Positions 2,152-59,826 of a stretch of 64,000 nucleotides of DNA are shown here, piece after piece. The first letter of the stretch is position 1; each line of letters opens with the position of its first letter. The position numbers and the translations under genes were made by a program. The notes beneath the pieces were generated by a model, which searched no databases, was not told where the DNA came from, and worked only from the letters and a program-made list of their open reading frames with translations. The DNA comes from Parcubacteria group bacterium GW2011_GWA2_51_10 (lineage in GTDB: Bacteria; Patescibacteriota; Minisyncoccia; Phycocordibacterales; UBA2100): NCBI GenBank assembly GCA_001004265.1, contig LCQS01000017.1:2530-66529 (forward strand). The letters are read 5' to 3'.

Positions 2152-2373
2152 TCAATCTCCTGCGCCGACAAGCGCACGGATCGCCGCCGCGGCCTGCTCT
2201 TCCGCGCTCTGCGCCATTTCGTATTTTTGGACGCCGTATGTAACGGCGAAGCTCACGCTTATAAATACCAGAAAGCCAACGAGAAATTTGAAGAACGATC
2301 CAGTTGGACTTGGACTCATGATTAGTATTCTACATCTTTTATACGGCGATGCGCTTGTATAATGAACAGGCAT
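2152..2373 (-). CDS. small membrane protein (hypothetical)
   Basis: 73-aa ORF with one hydrophobic segment FFKFLVGFLVFISVSFAV. No homolog recognised. Confidence 0.3.
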   Translation of the reverse strand: MPVHYTSASPYKRCRILIMSPSPTGSFFKFLVGFLVFISVSFAVTYGVQKYEMAQSAEEQAAAAIRALVGAGD

Positions 2374-3202
2374 GAAAAAATATCTTATTTTGGTCTTTAT
2401 TCTCTATATCCTCTTGCAGGCCCCTTCTGTTATCAATGCCGATGAGAAAATCCCGGCCGGGTTTCCTGCGCAGTCTATTTGGACTTCGCAAGCGAGTGCT
2501 GTTGAAGGTGAGACGATAGATGTGTACGCAGCCATCCACAATGGCAGTGCGGAATCCATCAAAGGAAACGTCACATTCTCCGTTGATGGAAAATCTATTG
2601 GTTCGAAATCTTTTGAGATTTCTGCCGGAAAATCCGAACTCGTGTCAATCGCATGGAAGACGGTAGCGGGAACGCACATTATTCGCGCAAACATCGAAAG
2701 CGAATCGGGAGTGAAAAACGATCAGAGCGGCGATCTTTCCATAACGATCTCAAACGCGCCTGCTCCAACGCAGTTGGAGCAGGGCGCGCAAGTTGTTTCT
2801 GAAGCGGCTGCGAAAATTGCTTCCGCATCTGCTCCGGCAGTTGCGTCTGTGGCGCAAAACATTATTCAGGGAGCGGAAGCTTTTCGACAAAGTGGCATCG
2901 CATACGCGCAGAGAAATATGGAATCTGCAGAAAACGAGGGGGTAAAACAAGATGACGCATCGCCTGACACGCCAGCGGGGCAGAAAGAGAGCGTCGCTAC
3001 CAAAGAAGTCCCGGGATCGGTTGCAGGTGCGAAAACGTCAGGAGAAGCCCAGAATTCTGTGTTTGCAAAATTGTCCCAGCTTGCGGCACCGGCGATTCTC
3101 TTCAGTTTCGGAAACCGCGCGATTTTCTACCCGCTTCTCTCCCTACTCGCCCTCGTTATTTTATTCGTACTTGGCAGAATGGTCCGCCGCCCGCAGTTGT
3201 AG
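2372..3202 (+). CDS. secreted or cell-surface protein with CARDB/DUF11-like beta domain and C-terminal membrane anchor
   Basis: 276 aa. N-terminal signal peptide MKKYLILVFILYILLQAPSVINA. GETIDVYAAIHNGSAESIKGNVTFSVDG is CARDB-like. Ala-rich linker and C-terminal hydrophobic segment. Confidence 0.6.
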   Translation: MKKYLILVFILYILLQAPSVINADEKIPAGFPAQSIWTSQASAVEGETIDVYAAIHNGSAESIKGNVTFSVDGKSIGSKSFEISAGKSELVSIAWKTVAGTHIIRANIESESGVKNDQSGDLSITISNAPAPTQLEQGAQVVSEAAAKIASASAPAVASVAQNIIQGAEAFRQSGIAYAQRNMESAENEGVKQDDASPDTPAGQKESVATKEVPGSVAGAKTSGEAQNSVFAKLSQLAAPAILFSFGNRAIFYPLLSLLALVILFVLGRMVRRPQL

Positions 3203-3346
3203 TCCTTGCCGCGCACGCTAGGGCGCGGCGCCGTAAACCCACGGGATAATTCTATAGTTGTCGTGCGGCGGCGTTCCCGTACCAGTTTTGAAATACTCGT
3301 TGGATGCTGGGTGTTTGGTACGATGTTGGAACTTTACTGCGCTAGC

Positions 3347-3868
3347 CTAGCGTCGAAAGTCCGGGTACTTTTTTAGTTTAAATGGGATGGAAACGACGCC
3401 ATCTTTTCTTTCACGAACCGGTGATTCCTTTGCACTGTATTGAAGTACTGTAAATTGAACTTCTGACGTACTTTGTACTTTTATTTTTAGATTGACAACT
3501 TCTTTAGGATTTAACTTCTGAATTCTAAAAAGCCAAACTTTTTTACCAACCTGGTCTTTAGCCATTACTGCCACGTGGTTAGTATTCACATTCATATGCT
3601 CGACGGTTTTACCGATGGGGGTATCATCTGAGATCGTAGTGATATCAAACCCGTCAGCAGAGAGGCCCTCAACGTAGATATCGTAGAGTTCGCTGTTGAG
3701 TCTGTTGGTGATTTTTAAGTCGCGAATTTCTACCCACTCATCAGATGCATCTGACTTCATCCGTCTAGGATTAATCTTGACGGGCGAAATACCATTAAAC
3801 AGATAAACGCCCATTTTTAAGATTGCGTCAAATGTGAGATCAAATATTTTTTCGATAAAAAAGCCCAT
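3347..3868 (-). CDS. hypothetical protein (AT-rich island, 3' gene of a putative 3-gene operon)
   Basis: 173-aa ORF in a low-GC stretch. No recognisable motifs. Co-directional and closely spaced with the nuclease gene. Confidence 0.5.
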   Translation of the reverse strand: MGFFIEKIFDLTFDAILKMGVYLFNGISPVKINPRRMKSDASDEWVEIRDLKITNRLNSELYDIYVEGLSADGFDITTISDDTPIGKTVEHMNVNTNHVAVMAKDQVGKKVWLFRIQKLNPKEVVNLKIKVQSTSEVQFTVLQYSAKESPVRERKDGVVSIPFKLKKYPDFRR

Positions 3869-3920
3869 TGGTTTGTTTGCTTTTAAATGCTAGCAGGCAA
3901 AATATTTTCAGTGCATCTCG

Positions 3921-4571
3921 TTAATTTTGTTCTCTAACTAATTTTTTGTATTTACACCAGGCGCAGTTCGAGGTAGCAGTAGGAAGAACACCGGAAAGAA
4001 GCCCTGAAATTTCTTCAATTAGTCGAAAAAACTGCTGCATATCTTCTTTGACTTCAAAATATTGTGGTTGAGAAGTAAAGACCGCGCGCCCTTCCTTTAT
4101 TTCTACGGATTGTGGAGACAAGGTTACGATGCCCATGTGCTGAACTTTTCTTGGCTCACCTTCTTGCGGATTTTCGAAAGCAAACTTGTAAGCGTGCAGC
4201 TGTGAGCCATATCTTTGCAATATTTTCTCCTGAGTGCTGTCAATGATTTTGAAGTCGATCACCGTGTGTTCTCCACTCGGAGTTCTGCACAAAATATCAA
4301 ACCTTCCGCTGATATAACAATCACTGCTGGGGATGATTGTGGACTTTAACCAGCCTTCTTGTGATTCGACTATGACGTCCGGAAGGTCTGGATGAATATT
4401 CCGCATATTCATCCCAACAATGTGCGATTGAAGAAGAGAATTCATTCGCGCAAAGATACCCGGGAAAGGCATCGACGGCAGAGCCAGCCCCAGTTTAACT
4501 TTAGAGTAGTAGCAGTGTTTGCAGTCACCTAAGAGATAGCCAAAATCAGAGGGACTGAGTTTATAACTCAT
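3921..4571 (-). CDS. Cas4/RecB-family PD-(D/E)XK nuclease with a 4-Cys cluster
   Basis: 216 aa. N-terminal SPSDFGYLLGDCKHCYY resembles the Cas4 N-terminal motif. GRFDIL (motif II), VIDFK ((D/E)xK) and QLHAY (QxxxY). C-terminal CAWC completes a C...C...CxxC cluster. Confidence 0.65.
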   Translation of the reverse strand: MSYKLSPSDFGYLLGDCKHCYYSKVKLGLALPSMPFPGIFARMNSLLQSHIVGMNMRNIHPDLPDVIVESQEGWLKSTIIPSSDCYISGRFDILCRTPSGEHTVIDFKIIDSTQEKILQRYGSQLHAYKFAFENPQEGEPRKVQHMGIVTLSPQSVEIKEGRAVFTSQPQYFEVKEDMQQFFRLIEEISGLLSGVLPTATSNCAWCKYKKLVREQN

Positions 4572-4576
4572 TTTGC

Positions 4577-4744
4577 TTACGGCTCAAATCCTCCAGTTGC
4601 TTCTTTTTTCTCGCACTTGCTACACGTTCGCAACTGCTGATCTTTCCTGTCATTGGGCTCTCCGCAGGATAAACAGCGACCTTCTCTCCACGCCTCGTCT
4701 GCAAGATCTTGACCCTGGTTCGATAAATCATTCTCGTTGCTCAT
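4577..4744 (-). CDS. small zinc-ribbon protein (55 aa), missing from the ORF track
   Basis: Translated by hand: MSNENDLSNQGQDLADEAWREGRCLSCGEPNDRKDQQLRTCSKCEKKEATGGFEP. Carries CxxC...CxxC. Its stop lies 6 nt upstream of the nuclease ATG. Confidence 0.5.
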   Translation of the reverse strand: MSNENDLSNQGQDLADEAWREGRCLSCGEPNDRKDQQLRTCSKCEKKEATGGFEP

Positions 4745-5009
4745 ATAAAATAGTATTTAACCCTAATGGAACCACTGTATAACCTTTAAAATCGAAGTAA
4801 AGCTACCCGTTTTACGTTATATATTCTCGGCATATGCTGCGAGCACCAAAACACCGAGCACAAACCACCAGCGATAGTAGATCGGTCGATTATGTCCTAT
4901 TCCTATGTATCCTGGCCATCTGACTTATCCCCACCGTTGTGAGCACTAAATCCACATACTTATCCTCACCCCTTATCCACTTCACCACCGCTATTACGTT
5001 CCTCAAGAA

Positions 5010-6380
5010 CTACTTGGATTTGAGGAGGAAGGCGCCGAAGGCGCCGGAAACGAGGCTTTGGTTGTAGAGTTCGGGCGAAAATGGATCGGCAAATTTCCGC
5101 TCGGGTTCCTTGCGTGTTTCGTCGCACCAAACGCAGACAGCATCCCACGTTTTGGTCCACCAAGGTTCAGAGTAATCATCGCCAGGTGTAAAAACCTCTA
5201 CGCGCTGATCCCACGGAGTCGGCACGTACTCGCTGTCCTCGATTCTGTATTCCTGTGGCTGTTCAGTAAATGGCAGTTGCTGCTCGACCGATTCGCCCAC
5301 AGCGGGTCCGAATTCATCGTCGTTGTACGCACCGATTGGGACATCTTTATAAACATCGCCTTCGTACTCCTGCCGCGGGTTATAGAGAGGCTCTGGTGCA
5401 TTGAGAGATCCAGGAAAGAACTCATCGTCGCTGTACGCACCGATTGGGACATTTTTGTACGTATCTTCAGAATACTGCTGGTCCTGATTGTAGCGCGGTG
5501 CGACTTCCGCGCTGTCTTGGCTCCAGATATTGTTCCACAGACTGCTCCAGAATCCTTCAGCTGGCGGCTGTGGCATGGAGCCAAGGTCGTCTCCAGAAGA
5601 TGGGAACGGCGAGCTTGAGTCGTCGGTTCCCCACGAGACCGCTCTTTCCGTACCGACTGATGCGCGAGGCGGCTCGCTCCTCGAGGTAGTAAACCAGCTT
5701 GCCACGCGCTGAAAAAAACCACTCGAATCTTCATCCGGCAAGGGTTGGTATGCTTCGCCATCGGCCGGATATGGAGAATCCCAGCGCGGCTCGTCGCTGG
5801 TGACTCGCACATTCCAATTTGGAGTTCTTTCCTCAACCGGAGCTCGCCATTGTGTCTGAAGCGACCCCCACTCTCCCGGCTCGAGACCACCGGTTGCCCT
5901 TACTGTCTCAGCAATCTCACTGTTGCTTGGTCCCTCTACGCATTGGAGGTAGCGATAGTAATCATCTTCGCCAGGGTATCTATCCGCACAGGTAATATCA
6001 ATCGTACCGTATAATTGCCGCTCTACGCGCGGTGCTGCAGGTGCTTCTGCTGTTGAGATTCGATACTTTTCAGGATTATCGATGCAGTCCTTTAGTTCAT
6101 TCCAATCGCCGTTCCTTTGATATAGGTTATTGCACTCAGGATATGAAGGCGAGTTGTAATTAATTCCGGAAACTGATTTCGCAGACGTCTGTGCTCCGCC
6201 AGACGGAGCAGTGGGTACGCGCGCACCTACGCTCGGTGTTTTTTGTAGAGTGCTTGGAGCCGGAGTTGTCGCTATTCTCCGGCTGATACAGTTAGCAACT
6301 AGTGCATCTCCGAGAAGGCTTAGCCTGTTCAATAATTCCGCCGGCCCGCTTGCCAGTACTTGGCGATGCCGCAGACTCAA
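5010..6380 (-). CDS. low-complexity secreted-type protein with internal tandem repeats (possibly the 3' part of a frameshifted gene)
   Basis: 456 aa. Repeats YKNVPIGAYSDDEF / YKDVPIGAYNDDEF. No signal peptide of its own. Overlaps the 3' end of the upstream ORF by about 89 nt. Confidence 0.5.
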   Translation of the reverse strand: MSLRHRQVLASGPAELLNRLSLLGDALVANCISRRIATTPAPSTLQKTPSVGARVPTAPSGGAQTSAKSVSGINYNSPSYPECNNLYQRNGDWNELKDCIDNPEKYRISTAEAPAAPRVERQLYGTIDITCADRYPGEDDYYRYLQCVEGPSNSEIAETVRATGGLEPGEWGSLQTQWRAPVEERTPNWNVRVTSDEPRWDSPYPADGEAYQPLPDEDSSGFFQRVASWFTTSRSEPPRASVGTERAVSWGTDDSSSPFPSSGDDLGSMPQPPAEGFWSSLWNNIWSQDSAEVAPRYNQDQQYSEDTYKNVPIGAYSDDEFFPGSLNAPEPLYNPRQEYEGDVYKDVPIGAYNDDEFGPAVGESVEQQLPFTEQPQEYRIEDSEYVPTPWDQRVEVFTPGDDYSEPWWTKTWDAVCVWCDETRKEPERKFADPFSPELYNQSLVSGAFGAFLLKSK

Positions 6381-7224
6381 AATCTGCTCCTGAATCTAGC
6401 CCGGTGGGAAAGGTTTGCTGGGGCGCAGTGCTTCGCAATGGATTGCCTCCCAAGTATGTCTGATATAAACGATTCAGGCATGAATTATATGCTCTGCTCC
6501 CGATGGGATCTTCTAACGCACACGCTTGTTGAAAACTTTGGTTCGTCGCGTAATCTATATCAGGCTGAGCTGAAGGAACTGCTGGAACTGTTGAAGGTGC
6601 GGCAGGCTTTATCTGAAAACCGCGCGGCAGTGGAGCTGCCGACTTTGGACCTGCCATAACAGCCTTGAACCGGGCGTCGACTTCCGCCTGCGGAAGACCC
6701 GCGTTTACGGCATCTTGATACTCATCTGCGATTTGAAATTTGTCTTTTCCCGCAGAAGGACCGAATAAGCCGCTGCTCGGCGTATTTCGATCCAGAGCAC
6801 GGGAACGCGCCAGCGCTTCATCAACCGGAAAGGAGCTGTAAAGCGATCTATCAAGTGCTCGCGATTCTGCCAGAAATGGATCATTCCCGGGCGTATCTCC
6901 CCCATCTGCCCAGCACGAGTCAAATGCTTGCATATCATTTGGATGTTGGCTAAAACAATACTGTACGCGAGGATATTCAAACGTATCAGCCATTTCTGTT
7001 GTGCACGTACCAAGGTTTTTCCCGAAAGAACCATCGGAAATAAGCCATTGACAGTATGTATCGAGTGCCTGATCCCTTGTAATTTCCTCAGTTTCTTTAG
7101 GGCAGGTGTTCCCATAACCAAGGAAACAAAATGCCTGTGCCTTTGCGGGGATAGAAAAAACAATTACGATAAAAAGCGCAAATGAGATGACGAACAAAAA
7201 TCCCAATCGCGAGGATCGAGTCAT
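6292..7224 (-). CDS. secreted Cys-containing hypothetical protein
   Basis: 310 aa. Signal peptide MTRSSRLGFLFVISFALFIVIVFSIPAKAQA. Paired Cys residues and Pro/Ala-rich segments. Confidence 0.55.
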   Translation of the reverse strand: MTRSSRLGFLFVISFALFIVIVFSIPAKAQAFCFLGYGNTCPKETEEITRDQALDTYCQWLISDGSFGKNLGTCTTEMADTFEYPRVQYCFSQHPNDMQAFDSCWADGGDTPGNDPFLAESRALDRSLYSSFPVDEALARSRALDRNTPSSGLFGPSAGKDKFQIADEYQDAVNAGLPQAEVDARFKAVMAGPKSAAPLPRGFQIKPAAPSTVPAVPSAQPDIDYATNQSFQQACALEDPIGSRAYNSCLNRLYQTYLGGNPLRSTAPQQTFPTGLDSGADFESAASPSTGKRAGGIIEQAKPSRRCTSC

Positions 7225-7323
7225 GCTTCAATAATACTCTGATGTGGATAAATCGGGGAATTTCGTGTGGATAAAGCTGTGCAGAATCGATTTCAATTCG
7301 CAGCGACGAGTTCGAGGAAAATA

Positions 7324-8190
7324 CTACGGATTCGAATTTACGTATGCTCTAGTCTTCGCCCCAAAGTAGCCGGCCACCGGAGTGATTCCTGCTGCTTTCT
7401 GCAATCTAATTACCGCTGCGCGCGTGAAAGCGCCAAATTTGGTCGTCTCGTTTCCAGGAGAGCCGGGGCCACTCGCGGCTATGAGGTAACCATGCGCATT
7501 GAGCCAGACTTGGAGCTGCTTCACATCAGAGCCGGTGGATCCGAGCTGCAAATTGCGCGCGAAGTTTGCGCCGACGGTCGTTTGACCTGTCATTGCCGCC
7601 AACTGTGCCATGAGCGCATTGATCTGCGCGGTGAGCTGCGCAATGAGCGCGGTGCGCTGCTCTGCTGTCAGAGTACCCGTAGCTGCCGGCAGCGTTGCGG
7701 TAGTGGTAGTTGTCACCACAGGCGTAGTTACGACCGCTGTGGTGCCACCGCCGCCTCCCCCGCCACCTCCTCCGCCTCCGCCTCCGCCTCCGCCGCCACT
7801 GCCTGTAGTTGCGGCGCATGAACCGGTGTCAGGTTCGATGGTAATCGTTCTTGAATTGGTAGTTCCCTGAAAGCTTACAGATGAACTGGAGTCCGCCGTG
7901 CACGTCGAGGCGCTTATCGCCTCGGACGGCGCATTGTGCGTGATCTTATATCCATTCCCCTGCTGGATCGTTATGGAGGATCCGGACAACAGCACGAATG
8001 AGAAGTTGCCCGCATTTACCGTTATCGATTCGATTGACGCGCTGCTTCCGGATACGGAGTACGTGATGCCTCCCGCCGTGATGTTCGTATCAGTCGTAAG
8101 CGTGACATCATCTGCAGCCGCGAACGCAAGGATTGGCGCAAGCAGCGCTAGGAGCGTGCCTGTGAGAATTTTTTTCAGATTCATGGCCAT
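7324..8190 (-). CDS. secreted protein with poly-Gly/Thr linker and C-terminal putative peptidoglycan-binding (PG_binding_1-like) domain
   Basis: 288 aa. Signal peptide MAMNLKKILTGTLLALLAPILAFAAA. An 18-residue Gly run and Thr-rich region. C-terminal GSTGSDVKQLQVWLNAHGY...FGAFTRAAVIRLQKAAGI matches the PG-binding fold consensus. Confidence 0.6.
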   Translation of the reverse strand: MAMNLKKILTGTLLALLAPILAFAAADDVTLTTDTNITAGGITYSVSGSSASIESITVNAGNFSFVLLSGSSITIQQGNGYKITHNAPSEAISASTCTADSSSSVSFQGTTNSRTITIEPDTGSCAATTGSGGGGGGGGGGGGGGGGGGTTAVVTTPVVTTTTTATLPAATGTLTAEQRTALIAQLTAQINALMAQLAAMTGQTTVGANFARNLQLGSTGSDVKQLQVWLNAHGYLIAASGPGSPGNETTKFGAFTRAAVIRLQKAAGITPVAGYFGAKTRAYVNSNP

Positions 8191-8221
8191 TTTCGCTTAG
8201 AAGCTAATAATGTGTGCTTCT

Positions 8222-8908
8222 CTAGCGGACAGCCCAGAAGTTCACAGAGGTTCCGTTCAATGTCGTGTTGCCGTTATTGCTGTCCATATCCGTGTTGAGT
8301 ACACGCAGATGGACGGTCCCCGCCGTTGCACTGGACGAAGCTGCCTGAATCACGAAGCTGCTCTCGAATGAGCTTGTCGCCTGAACGAGTACTCTGTAGC
8401 TGTTCGTAAGACCCGTAGCCCCCGTGCAATCCACATATTTCGTCGTGGACGCGGTAAAGCTTGTCACGTCAGCAAACGAACAAAAGCCAAATACCATCCC
8501 ATTAATGGTGCTGACGCGATCGTCTCCGACACGTAGTGCCGTCGTCGAAGCGGCAGTCCCTATGGAGAGCGTGCCATCTATCTCGGCGTCTCCCTCAACA
8601 CCAAGCTCATCTGCGCCGACATCACCAATCTGATCGAATGTAGCGCCAGTGCCGATGCGAAGTTGCGTGAAATACGCGTTCGCGGTTACGCTGTCTGCTA
8701 CAGTGTCTCCAAACGTAAGATCTCCCCATGTCGTAACGGCCCCCGTGACTTGGAGCGTCGTTGATGCATTAATCGCGCCACCAGTAGTTATGCTCGTGCT
8801 GATGGTCGTCGCTCCTTGAACGAACGCCACAACGACAAATACTCCCGCTACGACCGCAATCGTCATGTAGGCAAGACGGCGGTCAAGAACAAACCATGAT
8901 TTCTTCAT
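8222..8908 (-). CDS. membrane-anchored Thr/Gly-rich surface protein (hypothetical, pilin-like composition)
   Basis: 228 aa. N-terminal TM segment YMTIAVVAGVFVVVAFV. Remainder is Thr/Ser/Gly-rich and beta-like. Confidence 0.45.
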   Translation of the reverse strand: MKKSWFVLDRRLAYMTIAVVAGVFVVVAFVQGATTISTSITTGGAINASTTLQVTGAVTTWGDLTFGDTVADSVTANAYFTQLRIGTGATFDQIGDVGADELGVEGDAEIDGTLSIGTAASTTALRVGDDRVSTINGMVFGFCSFADVTSFTASTTKYVDCTGATGLTNSYRVLVQATSSFESSFVIQAASSSATAGTVHLRVLNTDMDSNNGNTTLNGTSVNFWAVR

Positions 8909-9107
8909 AGTATTTTCATGTTTATGATTAAAAAAATGCCCTCGTAATATAGCGTGGCGATCCTGCGGATCTTCCGCACCATTGCTCTGATGCTACACCC
9001 CCTATTGCCCCGTCAAGCTTAGCGGGCCTTTTTTAGTGGATAACTCGCAACCAGTGCGCAGAACCGGACGATATTTAAATATTTCAAAATGACAGGAGGG
9101 ATCCGGC

Positions 9108-9806
9108 CTATTGCGATACGCGAGAAATTTCTAGATCGAGCTGCTGCATGATTTGCGTCTCTTTTATCCCTTTTGCCATATCTCTAGCTTGAGTGTAATA
9201 GGTACGCGCATTCGGTAGATCACCCTTATCTTCGAAATATCTCGCGAGCATCGTCGTAAGGTCAATGCTGCCTCGCACATCAACCTTAGATATTCCCTCT
9301 TTTAAAATCTCGATTGCAGAATCTGTGTCTTGTTTGTAGACATAGCGATACATCTCGTGCAAATCGGAATAGTTCATCGAAAGCGATGGGTTCGCCTCTA
9401 TCGCTTTACGATAGTATCGCTCTGCCGCAGGGTAGTCCTTTTTTGTATGGAAATGGTATTCGGCGATATTGTGGAGCGATATCGCATCGGATGGATTCTT
9501 CGCGACGAGGTACTCCCAAACCTCGAGAGCGCCTTCGTAGTCGTTCACCATCTTGTAGTAGATGGCGAGATCAAGCCATGCTGCGGTATTCTCGGGATTC
9601 GTCTCTATACTCTCTTTAATCTTTGCAAGGTTCTCCGTATATACCGTGCGCGCATTCTCTGCAAAATCAGCCGGGAAAACCGTTGGTCGGTCAAGCGAAG
9701 GCGGCGCATTAGATAGAAGACCCCCCGACCGAGAAAACAAGAAGGCGCCTACGAGTAAAACGATCACAATACCGACTATCACGATAAACTGATTATTTTT
9801 TGTCAT
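9108..9806 (-). CDS. TPR-repeat protein with N-terminal TM anchor
   Basis: Start placed at the internal Met MTKNNQFIVIVGIVIVLLVG. Several TPR-like repeats (AAWLDLAIYYKMVNDYEGALEVWEYLVAKNP...). Confidence 0.6.
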   Translation of the reverse strand: MTKNNQFIVIVGIVIVLLVGAFLFSRSGGLLSNAPPSLDRPTVFPADFAENARTVYTENLAKIKESIETNPENTAAWLDLAIYYKMVNDYEGALEVWEYLVAKNPSDAISLHNIAEYHFHTKKDYPAAERYYRKAIEANPSLSMNYSDLHEMYRYVYKQDTDSAIEILKEGISKVDVRGSIDLTTMLARYFEDKGDLPNARTYYTQARDMAKGIKETQIMQQLDLEISRVSQ

Positions 9807-9977: not shown

Positions 9978-12900
9978 TTACTTGGACAATGTCCATCCAG
10001 CCGTACCCGTTGATGGGAGGCCCGGGACCCCGTACCCGCTCGCCCAGTCGAGCTTCGCGCGAGCAAGTGCGCTCGTGGATTCGGTGGTCGTAGAGTTCGG
10101 AGACCAGATGAAGTTGTCGCCCGCCGATAGTGCATCGATTGTCGCCTCGTCGCTCATCAAAGTCGAGAGAGACGGGTAATCGCTGTCACCCACGAGCTTC
10201 GCGGTGATGAAGCCCGAGAATGTACCAGTACCGGCTGTGAGCGTAACATCCGCCACTACCTTGAAGTAGTAGGTCGTGCCATTCGGGATATCAAGGACGC
10301 TCGAAAGTTCGAACTCGTTGTCTCCCGTGGGGCCTACACCATCGGTGCCATCATAGATGAGACCGTTCGTGAAGCCAGGCACACCCTGCGACATTCCCGA
10401 ATCAGTGAAGGCGTAGACGTCGAAGTTCTCTACGGTAGTCGTGCCCGAAACCGAGCTTCCTGTTGACGAAGCGGCATTGATCGTGATCTCGCTCAATTGG
10501 ATACCGAGATCAGCTTGACCCATGTTTCCGCTTGCAGTGATGCTGAATCGCAAGAGCTCGATGTTCGTTCCGCCGACAAGTGTCGTCGAAGGCGAGTTGA
10601 GCTGTGCGATCGTCGGATACGAGCGGAACATACGCACGCCAGATACTGCCGTGTCGCTCGTAGTTGTGGAGCAAACCTGCGCACCTGACGATTGGCCGTA
10701 TGCCCTTGTCGAACAGCCGCCCGCAGAAACGGACGATTCCTGATCGTAGTCTACTTGGATTAAGACACCCGAGTCGCCTGGCTGGCCTGTGCCGATGTCG
10801 GCAAGGTCACCCTTGACGGTGAGTGTCTTGAAGCCGTTCGACGGAATGACCACTGTGCTGCCCGACGCGATTGTCGAGGTTGCGTATCGATCCGATCCGG
10901 AAAATGTCGCCGTACCGACCTGCGTCGCGCCATCCCACAGAGTGACCTGTACGAGGTCAGCCGGAGTGGAGCTGGCAGCGACATTGGACATAACGAGTCC
11001 AACGCGATCAAGCCGCATGTCCTCGTTGGTCCCATTAAAGCGAAGAACGCCGAGCGTCACATTGGATGTGCCGCCTGCTGCAATCGTGTAGGACGGACTC
11101 GAAGAGTCTTTCGCTACAGTGAGTGCGCCACCCGACTGAATCGTCATTGTGTTTCCATCAGTCAGAGCAGACGACGGAGTCGTCGGCGTAATCGTCGAGC
11201 CGGAAGCAACGCCAGTACCAGAGAAGGTAGTGTCGCCACTCGACGTGTTGAGATCCCATGCGAAGGCACCAGAGCTGGCGCTTCCTGGGACGTCACAGCG
11301 AATTCCTATGATCTTTGTTGCGCCTTTCGGTACAACGAGGTTCGTGGAGAACGTGAATGTCACGTCTTCATCAGAATCCGTAATTAAGCGGTTCACAGCT
11401 GTATCCGTGAGGCGCGTGGCGCCGTCAAACGCATTACAGTTGGTCGCAGCGCCACCGACGAGGGTCGTTACCTCATCCCAGTAGAACTTCGCCGACGTGA
11501 ATTTCACATCCTCTCCGGATGCTGTCGCGTTGAAGTTGTATTGTGCTACCAGTAAACCTGTCGCACCTGCAACCACGTTTTGCGCGGCCGGAGATGAGTT
11601 GATCGATACCGCTACCGAACCAGCGCGGACCGTCATGGTGTTACCCGTGACAGCCGACGAAAGCGTGGAGAGCGAGATCGTGTCTCCCGTCGTTGCGCCC
11701 TTAACCGTTGTCCAGTCTGTCGACGGAGTCGTCGAAGCCTGGATCGTGTCGGCGTTTGCGAAGTCGGTGCCAAGCTTACCCTTAAGGGTATAGATGTGTC
11801 TGCCGACGGGGAACGTTATAGTATCCGTGAACGTCACCTTTGAATCTGTCGCCGGTGATGCATCGCCGTCAACGGGACCTGCAACTACAACACCGTTTTC
11901 ATCAGTGAGCGTGACGCTCGTAATGTCTGCAGCGTTTGCATTGCCGCCGGTGATGCCGAAGTTGAAGATCGTCTGTTGGACAGTGATTCCTTCACCCTTG
12001 ACGTCAACTACGAATCCGCCTAAAGGCTGACCCGCCGTGTTTTCTGCAACGTTCTGTGCCGGAACTTCAGACGCGCGCGAAATGCTCGTGACTGTTCCCG
12101 TGTCAACGTTGATCACAGTACCACTGAAGAATGGGGTTCCAGAAGTGAACTCGGAGCCGTTGCCTGCAGTGCCGCTTTCGCTCTGTGTAGGCGTGATGCC
12201 GTGACCGTAGACTTCGCCTACGACGTAGAGATCTGCCGCCTTATATAGGTCGAAACGAACTGTTCGGTTCGGACCGCCGACAATGTCAATCTTCACCGTG
12301 AAGTCCTTGGTAGAACCCTTGGTGATTTCGATGCCATTGCCGGGGAATGTCGCCGAGTAGTACTTGCCGTCGGAAGAAACGACCATTGAGTAGTTCGTGC
12401 CGTCAACGACGGTTACTACATTTGCGAGATCGCCTGAAGAAACAGAGCCGCCCTGGTTCCATCGGATTGATTTGACCCAGACGTCCTCTGCGCTACCTCC
12501 TGTCGCGCGGACTTCCGCTGCGATGAAGCCGGTTGTTCCGATCGACTTACCTGACCCGGCTGTCGCAAGCGATGTCGTGTCAGGGTCCGAAGGACCGACG
12601 GCCATCGCGAGCGTACCGATCGTAAGTGTGCTGTTCATCGTGTGAGAAGCACCGACTATCGGAAGTGAGCCCGATACCGTTGCAGTCGTGTTGACTCCGA
12701 TCACAGAGAGTGACCCGACCTGACCCGCGTAAGAGTCGAGGCTAGAGTTCATATCAGCTGCGACAGTGAGCATCTTGGACTGGCCCGGTTGCAGTGTTAC
12801 TGCCGCATCGAGCGTCGCTTGATGATTGGAATTTAACGTCTTGGAACTGCCGATACGCATCGTTCCGTCGAGAAGAATGAGGCCTGAGAAGACTGCATCC

Positions 12901-13568
12901 TGCGCAAGGCCCGCGCGCTCGACTGTTACGCTATTTATCGTAACAGCAGCGGAGCTGTTGTTCGTGAGAGTGACGTTCGTGAACGGAACATTCGCTGCGT
13001 TTTCAGGAGCGAGCGAGTTTGCCGGCTGCATTCCTGCCATAATCGTGACGCTTCCCGTTACGGGAGGCGTTACGGGACCTGGGCCTGGACCTGGACCAGG
13101 ACCAGGAGCTACTGTGCACAAGGCATTCGCCTTTGCGCGAGAGCTCGGACCCCAGAAACCGGTTCCTGCCGAAAGGCCGACCGGCGTCAAGATGTCGGCA
13201 GCGTATTTGTTCTGGAACTTGACGACTGCCGCCCTCGTTAATCCGCCGAAGAACGACGTCTCATTGCCCACAGAACCTGGGCCGCTTACCGCGACCTGCG
13301 TGTCAGCGAACTTGTTTAGGAATTTCTGAACTTCCATGACTTCGCCTCCCGAGTCACTTTGTTTATGATTTCTCGTGAAGGTGAAGCATGAGCTCGAGGA
13401 CGCTCCTCCTTGGAGTGCCGCGAGTTGTGCCATCAGTGAATTGATCTGTGCCTGAAGATCGGAAACGCTCTGCGCTTTTGCCGGAGCGGCAAATGCAAAC
13501 GAGAGACCGATAACGAGGCCGAAGCCAACGAGCACTGTGGCAACATTTGTTGCTAATGCTTTACTCAT
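9978..13568 (-). CDS. giant (about 1200-aa) cell-surface protein with N-terminal signal/TM, PG-binding-like domain, (PG)n linker and Thr/Ser/Gly-rich beta repeats
   Basis: Start placed at MSKALATNVATVLVGFGLVIGLSFAFAAPAKAQ. LQAQINSLMAQLAALQGG plus CFTFTRNHKQSDSGGEVMEVQKFLNKF...FGGLTRAAVVKFQNKY is PG_binding_1-like. PGPGPGPGPGP linker. Paralogous to 7324..8190. Confidence 0.7.
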   Translation of the reverse strand: MSKALATNVATVLVGFGLVIGLSFAFAAPAKAQSVSDLQAQINSLMAQLAALQGGASSSSCFTFTRNHKQSDSGGEVMEVQKFLNKFADTQVAVSGPGSVGNETSFFGGLTRAAVVKFQNKYAADILTPVGLSAGTGFWGPSSRAKANALCTVAPGPGPGPGPGPVTPPVTGSVTIMAGMQPANSLAPENAANVPFTNVTLTNNSSAAVTINSVTVERAGLAQDAVFSGLILLDGTMRIGSSKTLNSNHQATLDAAVTLQPGQSKMLTVAADMNSSLDSYAGQVGSLSVIGVNTTATVSGSLPIVGASHTMNSTLTIGTLAMAVGPSDPDTTSLATAGSGKSIGTTGFIAAEVRATGGSAEDVWVKSIRWNQGGSVSSGDLANVVTVVDGTNYSMVVSSDGKYYSATFPGNGIEITKGSTKDFTVKIDIVGGPNRTVRFDLYKAADLYVVGEVYGHGITPTQSESGTAGNGSEFTSGTPFFSGTVINVDTGTVTSISRASEVPAQNVAENTAGQPLGGFVVDVKGEGITVQQTIFNFGITGGNANAADITSVTLTDENGVVVAGPVDGDASPATDSKVTFTDTITFPVGRHIYTLKGKLGTDFANADTIQASTTPSTDWTTVKGATTGDTISLSTLSSAVTGNTMTVRAGSVAVSINSSPAAQNVVAGATGLLVAQYNFNATASGEDVKFTSAKFYWDEVTTLVGGAATNCNAFDGATRLTDTAVNRLITDSDEDVTFTFSTNLVVPKGATKIIGIRCDVPGSASSGAFAWDLNTSSGDTTFSGTGVASGSTITPTTPSSALTDGNTMTIQSGGALTVAKDSSSPSYTIAAGGTSNVTLGVLRFNGTNEDMRLDRVGLVMSNVAASSTPADLVQVTLWDGATQVGTATFSGSDRYATSTIASGSTVVIPSNGFKTLTVKGDLADIGTGQPGDSGVLIQVDYDQESSVSAGGCSTRAYGQSSGAQVCSTTTSDTAVSGVRMFRSYPTIAQLNSPSTTLVGGTNIELLRFSITASGNMGQADLGIQLSEITINAASSTGSSVSGTTTVENFDVYAFTDSGMSQGVPGFTNGLIYDGTDGVGPTGDNEFELSSVLDIPNGTTYYFKVVADVTLTAGTGTFSGFITAKLVGDSDYPSLSTLMSDEATIDALSAGDNFIWSPNSTTTESTSALARAKLDWASGYGVPGLPSTGTAGWTLSK

Positions 13569-14135
13569 AGTTTTTATATTGACCTTTGTATCCCTTACCA
13601 CTTTCGGATATCCAATGGATGCGAAATTGCAACCTGTTGAAAATCCTAAAGTGGTAAGGGACCGCACACGCATTCTTTCGACGAGAATGCACGTGCGTTG
13701 TGTGTCTTCTAATAATTACACCTAATAACCGAAGACAAACTAATAATTCATACTGACACGAGCGAATCTTTTTTATTCGTGCGCCAGTAATTTGCTAGCC
13801 CCTGTTACTCGCCTTAGGCAGTACAGCGGATTAGCACCAGTAAGGAATTTTGTCATGCTGTCATTCAGCCGATGCGGGACAATATACTGAAAAATTTCTG
13901 TATCGAAGATGAAGCAAGATGAAGATAAATAGTCGTGCGGACAAAAAGCCGCATTTTTTCGTTGCACTATTCAATTATCAAAGAGCTGAAAGAGTACACA
14001 CTGCACGACGCGCATGGCTGCGGCATCTTACAGAACGCCCTTCCTTTGCCGAAAGGGCATCGCCGCAATTATATACCAGCAGCGTCTATGCTGCTTCAAT
14101 TCGCCCTCCCCCACTTTGGGGATAACTCATGAGAA

Positions 14136-22311: not shown

Positions 22312-22347
22312 ACTTGTGTCTACTTACTACTAACTACTTTCTACTAA
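22312..22347. repeat. heptamer tandem repeat (CTACTNA-like) in the ssb-rpsR spacer
   Basis: ctactta ctactaa ctacttt ctactaa ctag. Confidence 0.7.
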
Positions 22348-22797
22348 CTAGAATGGGATATCGTCCGGATTGATATCCTCTTTCGGATACTCGATCCCCC
22401 CTCCTTGAGCTTCTGCAGGTTCAGCCTCTCCGGGGCGGCGGCCGCCTGGGCCTCCGCTTGTCGAAGGGCCTCCTCCTTGCGGCCCGAACTGAACACGATC
22501 CGCAACGACTTCCGTGCGGTAATGTTTCTGCCCGTCTTTTTCCCAATTGCGCGTCTGGAGGCGGCCCTCAACCAATACCGATCTCCCTTTTTTCATATAC
22601 TGCGCGACAGTATCCGCCTGACGTCCAAAAACAACAATATTGTGGAATTCCGTCTGTTCCTGCTTTTTGCCGTCGCGATCTCGGAACACCCGATTCGTCG
22701 CAATCGAAAAGTTCACGACATTCATGCCGGACGGAAGCGCCTTTAATTCCGGGTCACGCGTGAGATTGCCGAAGAGAATGACTTTGTTGATGTACAT
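22348..22797 (-). CDS. ssb: single-stranded DNA-binding protein
   Basis: 149 aa. OB-fold, Gly-rich tail and acidic C-terminus DDIPF. Confidence 0.92.
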   Translation of the reverse strand: MYINKVILFGNLTRDPELKALPSGMNVVNFSIATNRVFRDRDGKKQEQTEFHNIVVFGRQADTVAQYMKKGRSVLVEGRLQTRNWEKDGQKHYRTEVVADRVQFGPQGGGPSTSGGPGGRRPGEAEPAEAQGGGIEYPKEDINPDDIPF

Positions 22798-28924: not shown

Positions 28925-28964
28925 AGTGTACTACGTTCTACGTACTACGTTCTACTTTCTAGTT
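28925..28964. repeat. heptamer tandem repeat (TACTACG/TTCTACG-like) upstream of glyS
   Basis: tactacg ttctacg tactacg ttctact ttctagt tctacc. Confidence 0.7.
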
Positions 28965-30821
28965 CTACCTCACAACAGTAGCTTCCAAGGGCGAGAATCC
29001 CCTATCGCCGATAATGTTCGTCGTAACATCCCGCACTGCTTTTGTAACGACCGCGCCCGTGGCCGAATCAATGCCAGTGAGGGTAATTCCCTGTAAGAGC
29101 ACGGGCTCTTCGCCTATTTGACTCGTCGACGGCGTAAAACCAACCGCGATTTCCGCCCATCGGATCGGGGAGCTAATGCCAACACCGGATGCTATGTCGC
29201 CTATTCTCCACGTCAGACTGCCGTCACTTACGTTAAAGGAAATATCTTCTCCCGCTTCCGGCTTGTACATTCCGAGCGAACGCACGTAGGGCGGCATCTG
29301 TGCCGTGAGCCGGGCGTTCTGTATCGCATTCGTCGTATTGGTCACTGTAAAAAGAATCGCATACGTAGTTTCCTGATTCGCTCTCGGCGGCAGTGGCCCC
29401 GTACTGACAAAAGGGTTCTCATAATAGAGACCCTGCGCCGCAACTTCCAACTCGCTCGCGAGTTTTAATGTTTTGCTCGCTGTTGCCCGAAGATTTCCCG
29501 GCACCCCCGTTTCCGAAAGACGTTTACCGGCGGCGTTGGTGCTGATAACGATGCTCGGATTCTGAATTCCGAAGGGCAGAGGCTGCGGAACCTGGAATGA
29601 AAAGCCAACGGTGCCGCTTCCTCCCGCGGGGAGGGAGGAGAGAGAACCGCCTGTTGTGGTTTTGTCCCACAGAATTGCGCTGTCGGAAGAGCGATAGTAA
29701 CCGTCGGTCGAACGGACGCTCGCCCCGTCAATTTCGATTCCAGAAAGACGCGCGACAATTACCGCGTCGGTTATTGCCGTCGACAGATTGTTTTTCCATT
29801 CAATGGAAACATTCACCGATTCTCCGGGAGCAACGATAGTCGCCGCCTCGCGGCCTTGGGGGTTTCCGCTAAAAGACTCTCCGGGGCTTCCGCTCCCTTC
29901 TTCTTTCTGCACTGTGATAGAGAGGCTGAGGAAAGCCTGCGAAATAACCATGCGGTGCGAATAATCCGCGACTACTGTTTCCAGAATGGCGCCCCCCTTG
30001 TCCTTGCGCGTCCCGACTGATGTGCGGAATATGCGCTCGTCGCCTTCTTCTCCGGTGAGCGTGCCGCGGAGCGTCACTGACACGCGCTCCCCCGGATTTA
30101 TATTCCCCAACGCCCAGAGCCCTGGCCGCTCGGGGCGAGGATCACCCGAGCTAAATGCGAAGCCAAATGGGTAGTCAATCTTGAGAAGCACGTCATTGAC
30201 AGGTGCAGGCGCGTTCGATGCAACCGTCACTGTAAGGAGCACCTGCTGCCCAGAGACAGTCTCAGTATTGCTCTCGACGGATATCGAAAGCGACGACGAG
30301 CTAAAAACTAATTCATAATCCAAAGACGTTCCTATCGCAACTCTCCGTTCCGGTTCGTCCGTTGTCCCTGGAGCGTGCGTGCCCAAAGGAAACGTAATGA
30401 CGAGATCGGCAAGATCGAGTGCCGCACGATTGTTGTTGGTTATTACGATCTGCAATTTTGTCGGCTCGCCGCCCGCTATGCGCGTCGGCGCAGAAATAGA
30501 AATGGCAGGAGGGGTCGGCTGGGAGCCGGCGCCGATTGTAAAATAGTAGGCGAGAAACGCGACGGCGCCGATAAGAAATGCGAAGCCCGTTATGAGGAGC
30601 CAGCGTCCAATAGTACTCATCACCTTTCCGCCTACGGCTACTGCCGCCGTCGCAGGATGCGGCGGCGGCATCTCTTTGCGCCACTCTTCAGAGACGGGGA
30701 GTGACTCTTCATCCATCTCGCGCCGAGGGCGATCCTTCAGACGCGACGAAAGCGAGCGCGAATACATCGCGCGACGCAGGCGATCTATCTTTTCTTCGTC
30801 CTGTGGCGAGTTCTCCATCAC
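28965..30821 (-). CDS. membrane-anchored extracellular multi-domain (CARDB/DUF11-like) protein
   Basis: 618 aa. Cytoplasmic N-terminus, one TM (WLLITGFAFLIGAVAFLAYYF), then repeated beta domains. Confidence 0.55.
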   Translation of the reverse strand: MMENSPQDEEKIDRLRRAMYSRSLSSRLKDRPRREMDEESLPVSEEWRKEMPPPHPATAAVAVGGKVMSTIGRWLLITGFAFLIGAVAFLAYYFTIGAGSQPTPPAISISAPTRIAGGEPTKLQIVITNNNRAALDLADLVITFPLGTHAPGTTDEPERRVAIGTSLDYELVFSSSSLSISVESNTETVSGQQVLLTVTVASNAPAPVNDVLLKIDYPFGFAFSSGDPRPERPGLWALGNINPGERVSVTLRGTLTGEEGDERIFRTSVGTRKDKGGAILETVVADYSHRMVISQAFLSLSITVQKEEGSGSPGESFSGNPQGREAATIVAPGESVNVSIEWKNNLSTAITDAVIVARLSGIEIDGASVRSTDGYYRSSDSAILWDKTTTGGSLSSLPAGGSGTVGFSFQVPQPLPFGIQNPSIVISTNAAGKRLSETGVPGNLRATASKTLKLASELEVAAQGLYYENPFVSTGPLPPRANQETTYAILFTVTNTTNAIQNARLTAQMPPYVRSLGMYKPEAGEDISFNVSDGSLTWRIGDIASGVGISSPIRWAEIAVGFTPSTSQIGEEPVLLQGITLTGIDSATGAVVTKAVRDVTTNIIGDRGFSPLEATVVR

Positions 30822-52997: not shown

Positions 52998-53020
52998 GAG
53001 CGTATAGCGTATAGCGTATA
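52992..53020. repeat. heptamer tandem repeat (CGTATAG x4) upstream of ruvX
   Basis: gcgtatagcgtatagcgtatagcgtatagc. Confidence 0.8.
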
Positions 53021-53068
53021 GCGTATAGCGCAACCAGACGGTACACGATACTGTTTTTCGATTTAGGA

Positions 53069-59469: not shown

Positions 59470-59515
59470 GCATTGAACTTTTTGCTACAAGCTGTACGCT
59501 ACAAGCTACACGTTA
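59470..59515. repeat. heptamer tandem repeat (CTACAAG/CTACACG-like x6) upstream of the methyltransferase gene
   Basis: ctacaag ctgtacg ctacaag ctacacg ttacaag ctacgg. Confidence 0.75.
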
Positions 59516-59826
59516 CAAGCTACGGAGAAACGGCAACGATCCGCATACTCGCCGCTGCGGAAGCGGCAATCGCGATGGCGCTTTTTTTGGGCTCATGGAC
59601 TCAAATTACTGCCATTGCCGCCGCAGTTGTCGTTGCACGCTGGCTCGTCTCTCCTGCGACACGCCCTTTGCCGCGAAGCACGTCCCTCCTTGCGCTCGTT
59701 ATGTGCCTTTCGCTTTTGGTAACGGGCGCCGGCGCCCTCGCCTTTGATTTGCCCCTATAAATAATCCCCTCCGGGCTGTGCGTAATTGTCCCTTGCCGGA
59801 CGCAGTGCTCCTGCCATAATGTCCCC

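Follow-up and report, generated by a model that had tools for sequence, protein, structure and literature searches.

We analysed a 64,000-nucleotide (nt) stretch of contig LCQS01000017.1 from Parcubacteria group bacterium GW2011_GWA2_51_10 (assembly GCA_001004265.1, positions 2,530 to 66,529 of the forward strand; hereafter the window) and found an AT-rich patch at 3340-4790 that carries three minus-strand open reading frames (ORFs). Our reading of the patch, which we hold with fair confidence, is that it is accessory DNA at a variable site flanked by conserved genes, that it probably came by horizontal transfer from a lower-GC donor within the Candidate Phyla Radiation (CPR), and that the nuclease it encodes is a solo enzyme. 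The host is a groundwater CPR bacterium related to Kaiserbacteria. The patch holds two real genes, which encode a 216-amino-acid (aa) nuclease and a 173-aa protein and are unconnected elsewhere, plus a possible 55-aa zinc-ribbon ORF. A preliminary description of this DNA had taken the three ORFs for one operon, perhaps a minimal defence module; a three-gene defence or mobile module is not supported. The features in question are the following.

3340-4790, no strand: AT-rich compositional island, from GC and tetranucleotide evidence
3347-3868, minus strand: 173-aa protein of a rare family, predicted to have a beta-sandwich after an N-terminal helix, from structure prediction and profile search
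3921-4571, minus strand: 216-aa stand-alone PD-(D/E)XK nuclease of predicted Cas4/RecB/AdnAB fold, PF12705-type, with a CxxC...CxxC site, from homologues, motifs, structure prediction and Foldseek
4577-4744, minus strand: 55-aa ORF with CxxC-X17-CxxC, putative zinc ribbon and unverified gene, from the ORF list and weak matches
3203-3346, no strand: convergent intergenic region between a CARDB-domain gene (2372-3202, plus strand) and the 173-aa gene, with a GC hairpin and a palindrome
4745-5009, minus strand: intergenic region of 265 nt 5' of the island genes, with three direct repeats, a possible promoter or operator
3203-7323, no strand: block of 4.1 kb that the nearest available relatives (loci L013 and L012) lack at the syntenic position, comprising the island and the genes for a 456-aa and a 310-aa protein

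Composition and variability of the AT-rich patch

The GC content of the region is not uniform. The island has a GC content of 41.7%, compared with the window mean of 51.9% (standard deviation 2.7% for stretches of the same size, z ~ -3.8), and the minimum of the whole window for this size lies at 3371. In a 100-nt profile, the GC content falls at ~3400 and returns at ~5000. The AT-rich island of the preliminary description is real; the 55-60% given for its flanks was too high, as they have 50-52%. The island is also one of only two tetranucleotide outlier regions in the window (distance z ~3.7), and its dinucleotide signature has a z of ~1.8. Taken singly, the genes for the 173-aa and the 216-aa protein have a GC content of 0.393 and 0.430 (against 0.520 ± 0.036) and a GC content at third codon positions (GC3) of 0.40 and 0.44 (against 0.555 ± 0.049; z -3.1 and -2.4), in both measures the lowest among the 57 ORF-defined genes. 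Since GC3 is lowest as well, the anomaly is more than an amino-acid effect alone, and the composition of the island is foreign, synonymous sites included. The island sequence with its junctions recurs in three further assemblies of the same organism (two from ENA, one from JGI), two of them at 100% identity and one with four mismatches, every one in rplL, and the island therefore does not stem from an error of assembly.

A second region stands out as strongly in its tetra- and dinucleotides, with z reaching 3.8: a repetitive 1231-aa gene with a peptidoglycan (PG)-binding domain at 9978-13673 on the minus strand, which is kept in L012 and L013 at 43-44% identity.

The island lies among genes for the ribosomal proteins L10 and L7/L12 and for CARDB, PG-binding and TPR proteins. 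We compared this neighbourhood with relatives at about the family level, Kaiserbacteria-like metagenome-assembled genomes that reach at best 63% identity in L10. Locus L013 has its counterparts of the 276-aa CARDB-domain gene (at 8187-8966 of L013) and the 288-aa PG-binding gene (at 7199-8062 of L013) in convergent orientation, with 124 nt between them; consequently, everything that corresponds to 3203-7323 of the window is missing there. L012 lacks everything matching 2373-9108. The missing block includes the 456-aa and 310-aa genes (5010-7224, minus strand), which separate the island from the PG-binding gene and have a normal GC content, so that the AT-rich patch is only a part of the variable spot. 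Neither of these two genes gave a match in the Pfam scan. By eye, their proteins look low-complexity and rich in Pro, Ser, Asp and Glu.

These results bear out part of the earlier claim that the patch was horizontally acquired: the foreign composition holds, as does the absence from the syntenic position in the nearest available relatives, while marks of a mobile element are missing, the relatives are distant, and what they lack is a 4.1-kb block and not the island alone. Small genomic islets likewise have atypical GC, GC3 and tetranucleotide composition and, as here, are absent at the syntenic site of relatives. With a length of only 1.45 kb, and bounded by neither an integrase nor a tRNA nor direct repeats, the patch differs from them. 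The genes within ~8 kb of the island gave no domain of an integrase, a transposase or a Cas protein, and the window has no CRISPR-like array, in line with what had been noted before on integrase, cas genes and CRISPR. There is no tRNA gene within 40 kb (the nearest is at 45.9 kb), and a search for att-like repeats bracketing the island gave only chance-level repeats of 10-18 nt. Among the features of mobile elements and genomic islands, the patch thus has the composition and the absence from (distant) relatives, and lacks the integrase or transposase and the att or tRNA site.

The same observations bear on the possibility that a larger element, such as a prophage, an integrative and conjugative element or a transposon, decayed here and left the patch behind after its integrase and ends were lost. 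The atypical composition would agree with this, as would the absence of the whole 4.1-kb block from a relative, the weak matches of the nuclease to PHROG 'exonuclease' families (E 1e-5) and the recurrence of a distant 173-aa-like beta-sandwich in a 3793-aa Phage-tail_3 protein. On the other hand, the missing mobility genes, att-like repeats and tRNA argue against it, the remainder of the block is at native GC, and neither the nuclease nor the 173-aa protein gave a tblastn match in 50,697 phage genomes. A scan of IMG/VR with the nuclease alignment retrieved only relatives that are 26-27% identical, and on this ground a recent phage origin was rejected. We consider the remnant explanation improbable, and the suggestion in the preliminary description of a mobile-element remnant did not hold up.

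A second explanation is that the genes are native and vertically inherited, that their low GC content results from a Lys-, Ile- and Asn-rich composition, low expression or relaxed selection, and that the relatives lost them. In each of its four hosts, the 173-aa family gene indeed exceeds its flanks in AT content, GC at second codon positions is very low (0.30), mobility signatures are missing and the neighbourhood is variable anyway. In addition, solo-cas4 genes were reported to be mostly vertically inherited, with occasional transfer (PMC5704561). Against this stand the GC3 values, which are also the lowest of the window, and the behaviour of the nuclease gene in other hosts. In five other genomes (L003, L006, L007, L104 and L106) its GC content equals or slightly exceeds that of its neighbours, whereas in the window it is 9 GC points below the mean; in L105, where it lies beside toxin-antitoxin genes, it is also well below. 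This pattern fits mostly vertical inheritance of the nuclease gene with occasional transfer. Furthermore, no named top match comes from Parcubacteria or Kaiserbacteria except the genome itself, and neither gene was found in 80 Parcubacteria loci (<=20 kb per genome). The closest homologue of the nuclease, 70% identical, is on a 43%-GC contig. Taken as a whole, vertical inheritance seems to us rather unlikely.

Several points nevertheless weigh against the reading that we favour. As the L10 of the best relative is only 63% identical, the syntenic absence indicates variability of the site and not a recent insertion. No donor was identified, identity to the best match being no higher than 70% for the nuclease and 51% for the 173-aa protein. 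The GC content of the 173-aa family gene is below that of its flanks in every locus seen, while its GC3 is near that of the neighbours in L103 and L001, suggesting that the AT-richness is partly intrinsic to the protein. Finally, the spacing of 5 and 52 nt between the island ORFs is compatible with co-transcription, so that a local functional link may exist.

The stand-alone nuclease

The 216-aa protein is identical to UY63_C0017G0011 of Parcubacteria group bacterium GW2011_GWA2_51_10 and has at least 373 homologous clusters, the best 120 of which are 50-70% identical (E<1e-67). The named homologues are mostly from CPR bacteria (Woesebacteria, Levybacteria, Daviesbacteria and Berkelbacteria). 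In an alignment of 40 members, S6-P-S-D-F, C17, C20, G89-R-F-D92, D106-F-K108, Q124, Y128, C203 and C206 are invariant, and the layout of two plus two cysteines (C17-x2-C20 ... C203-x2-C206) is present in 120/120 top homologues. By their pattern, the invariant residues are those of a RecB-type PD-(D/E)XK site plus a putative CxxC...CxxC metal site.

The AlphaFold2 (AF2) model of the protein, with a predicted local distance difference test score (pLDDT) of 93, matches a group of known nucleases in the PDB by Foldseek: the AdnA and AdnB nuclease domains, Cas4 SSO0001, MGME1, EXO5, RecE and the Argonaute-associated Cas4-like ACE1 (E 1.6e-6 to 5e-4, template-modelling (TM) score ~0.5). The best structural matches are to the RecB-like domains of AddB, AdnA and AdnB and to MGME1 and EXO5 (E 1.6e-6 to 1e-4), which share a Pfam family with the homologues of the nuclease; Cas4 SSO0001 (PDB 4ic1) is matched at E 1.8e-6 and TM 0.5-0.57. 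The protein had earlier been called a Cas4/RecB-like PD-(D/E)XK nuclease, and this assignment is borne out at the level of the fold. In the model, helices H18-27 and H204-215 each begin at one of the two cysteine pairs.

The similarity to Cas4 is much weaker at the level of sequence. The PADLOC Cas4 models give a marginal match (24 bits, E 8e-6), a PDB profile search places 4ic1 at E 0.7, and the Pfam scan of the protein itself gives no match at E<=1, with no match to PF01930 or COG1468 either. PF12705 is matched by 32 of 40 homologues (best E 1e-9), and a precomputed PF12705 match is listed under the database entry of the nuclease, although our own Pfam scan of the protein did not return it. 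The cysteine arrangement is different as well: the iron-sulfur (Fe-S) nucleases Cas4 and AddB have one N-terminal and three C-terminal cysteines (C...CxxCx5C), while this family has two and two. Of five Cas4 features, then, the RecB-type catalytic motifs (D92, D106-F-K108, Q124, Y128) and a predicted Cas4-like fold are present, and the canonical cysteine spacing, the profile match and the cas or CRISPR neighbourhood are not. The protein seems better classed as a PF12705-type RecB-like nuclease than as Cas4.

Solo Cas4 and Cas4-family nucleases outside CRISPR loci have been described before (Hudaiberdiev et al. 2017, PMC5704561); in that study, the PF12705 branch was reported not to be CRISPR-linked and solo Cas4 genes to be common in CPR genomes. 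The 216-aa nuclease resembles them in its predicted RecB-type PD-(D/E)XK fold, its D/DxK/QxxxY motifs and its four conserved cysteines, and also in that its gene stands alone and its host is a CPR bacterium with a small genome and no CRISPR-Cas. The preliminary description had called it an orphan Cas4-like protein, and with no cas gene, CRISPR array or integrase nearby, orphan is an apt term. It differs from AddB and AdnAB in being a 216-aa single-domain protein without a helicase partner or fusion; in fact, no adjacent helicase gene was found beside the nuclease in any locus examined.

We also noticed that, among the 120 top homologues, 81 have a C-terminus made up of acidic residues and then [ILMF]PF (59 IPF, 13 LPF, 6 MPF). 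The window nuclease and its two closest relatives (P0002 and P0003) are without this tail. These ends resemble the C-terminal interaction tip of SSB (a protein that binds single-stranded DNA), DDDIPF (PMC5872125), which suggests from the motif that the nuclease family may dock onto the SSB partner network.

The three ORFs and their surroundings

The three ORFs at 3347-3868, 3921-4571 and 4577-4744 are, as first described, co-directional and closely spaced, with gaps of 52 and 5 nt, the 55-aa ORF ending 5 nt before the start of the nuclease. From this spacing, they may be co-transcribed from the 4745-5009 region. One could imagine that they form one defence or mobile unit, in which the zinc ribbon and the beta-sandwich sense or regulate and the nuclease executes. 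Besides the common direction and short gaps, the shared atypical composition, the weak PADLOC Cas4 matches, the repeat triplet upstream and the location of some nuclease homologues near restriction-modification or toxin-antitoxin genes would be consistent with such a unit.

The neighbourhoods elsewhere argue against it. We viewed eight other neighbourhoods of the nuclease family, distant copies in IMG/VR among them, and found no zinc-ribbon or 173-aa-family neighbour in any. The nuclease lies with Obg and NucS in Woesebacteria, and in other loci with RRM, PolX and a Type ISP restriction enzyme, with UvrA and RsmA, with HicA and other toxin-antitoxin genes, or with a LexA-methylase fusion and ClpP. 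The closest homologue has an unrelated small ORF downstream, another neighbourhood has a further PD-(D/E)XK-like ORF upstream, and in L008 and L106 the ORFs upstream of the nuclease gene do not encode zinc ribbons. Conversely, the nuclease is present in none of three other neighbourhoods of the 173-aa family (L001/L002, L102 and L103), a family that a 3-sequence alignment also retrieved from metagenome contigs. Consistent with this, tblastn of all three island proteins against 103 fetched loci showed no co-occurrence, and the three-gene cassette was never found in the loci examined or in phages. PADLOC gave weak single-protein matches for the nuclease only and none for its two partners, no co-occurring set of system proteins of a known anti-phage defence (PADLOC-DB) was found, and close phage or IMG/VR relatives are missing. 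Together with the 55-aa ORF, which has no homologue and is not called as a gene elsewhere, these results make a single unit quite improbable, and neither the three-gene operon nor the minimal defence module of the preliminary description is supported.

The tandem arrangement in L007 deserves mention on its own: at 3-515 of this 64%-GC soil contig, a PD-(D/E)XK-like ORF (HIDFL...ILDYKPD) lies directly upstream of a nuclease that is 59% identical to that of the window.

The 55-aa ORF itself is plausible as a zinc-ribbon gene. The CxxC-X17-CxxC pattern is present, a CxxC...CxxC pattern occurs in only 2 of the 335 small ORFs of the window, and scans against Pfam and NCBIfam gave weak zinc-ribbon-type matches (E 0.007-0.04). 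However, we found no homologue anywhere searched, so the ORF is unique to this genome in our searches, and it is not called as a gene in the three further assemblies of the same organism.

The 173-aa protein is identical to UY63_C0017G0010, which is annotated as a hypothetical protein, and had been described as unknown, in agreement with Pfam, PHROG and PADLOC scans that gave no match. A word-indexed search of 5.8 billion proteins returned one homologue, 51% identical, while a profile run exhaustively against 1.84 billion proteins returned a family of ~15 representatives, six of them below E 1e-10. In the AF2 model (pLDDT 86), residues 2-23 form a helix and a beta-sandwich comes after it. Because charged residues are conserved in this helix, it is amphipathic and not a classical membrane anchor. 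The structural matches are to generic CBM3-like or mu-homology beta-sandwiches only (TM 0.35-0.41), and a search of viral structures gave nothing significant. In 4/4 hosts, the GC content of the family gene is lower than that of the surrounding DNA by 8-12 points (L001, 528-1067; L102, 5935-6510; L103, 5962-6504; window, 3347-3868). In L102, it lies inside a low-GC sub-block adjoining a 274-aa membrane protein. The family profile also has five weak matches (E 1.6e-6) within P0130, the 3793-aa protein with Fn3 repeats and the Phage-tail_3 domain, and this five-fold match suggests that the beta-sandwich is a repeatable module of a surface or tail type.

The intergenic regions at both ends of the island contain short repeats, as the preliminary description had pointed out. 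On the left, there are indeed palindromes, namely a GC hairpin (3208-3229) and a small one (3340-3355) that overlaps the stop codon of the 173-aa gene, yet shuffled sequence folds just as well (z -0.4 to -0.8). The hairpin may be a terminator of the convergent genes, though a terminator scan found no T-tract there. The palindromes were rejected as boundaries of an element, since terminator and promoter scans and folding gave nothing above chance. On the right, GGTG(A/G)GGATAAG is present in three direct copies on the minus strand within 67 nt (4923-4989); correspondingly, CTTATCC at 4924, 4959 and 4972 makes up three of the six sites of the window inside 55 nt (4924-4978). Judged by their arrangement, these copies could be a regulatory element. 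A promoter scan gave one promoter-like match in this region (4918-4889), which is not above chance expectation, and an Rfam scan of 2500-5600 matched no RNA family.

Tandem arrays of 7- or 14-nt units recur in the window, at 1462-1500, 22320-22350, 28928-28968, 52999-53030 and 59484-59523. The first is TAGTACG x5.6, intergenic between rplL and rplJ; the units of the others include CTACGTT and AGCGTAT x4.6.

Proposed role of the nuclease family

By analogy with Cas4, AddB, AdnAB, MGME1 and EXO5, the nuclease would most likely trim single-stranded DNA ends or flaps in repair or recombination, acting alone and not in a defence cassette. In the model, and by comparison with Cas4, its four cysteines would hold an Fe-S cluster or zinc and thereby bridge the two terminal helices. 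Two more far-reaching interpretations can be drawn from the data, namely that the trio is an undescribed minimal defence or exclusion unit of which the window offers the one sampled case, or that the CPR-wide nucleases are a new solo Cas4-like repair class plugged into the SSB network, most of them with the acidic ...IPF tail; we regard it as very improbable that either is true.

The island itself is of little note, as small atypical accessory patches are common and orphan Cas4-like nucleases of CPR bacteria have already been described. The nuclease family is of modest value in that it is large and mostly CPR-restricted, with a non-canonical CxxC...CxxC site and, in most members, an SSB-like tip. 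It could help to explain how DNA ends are processed in reduced genomes without RecBCD or AddAB.

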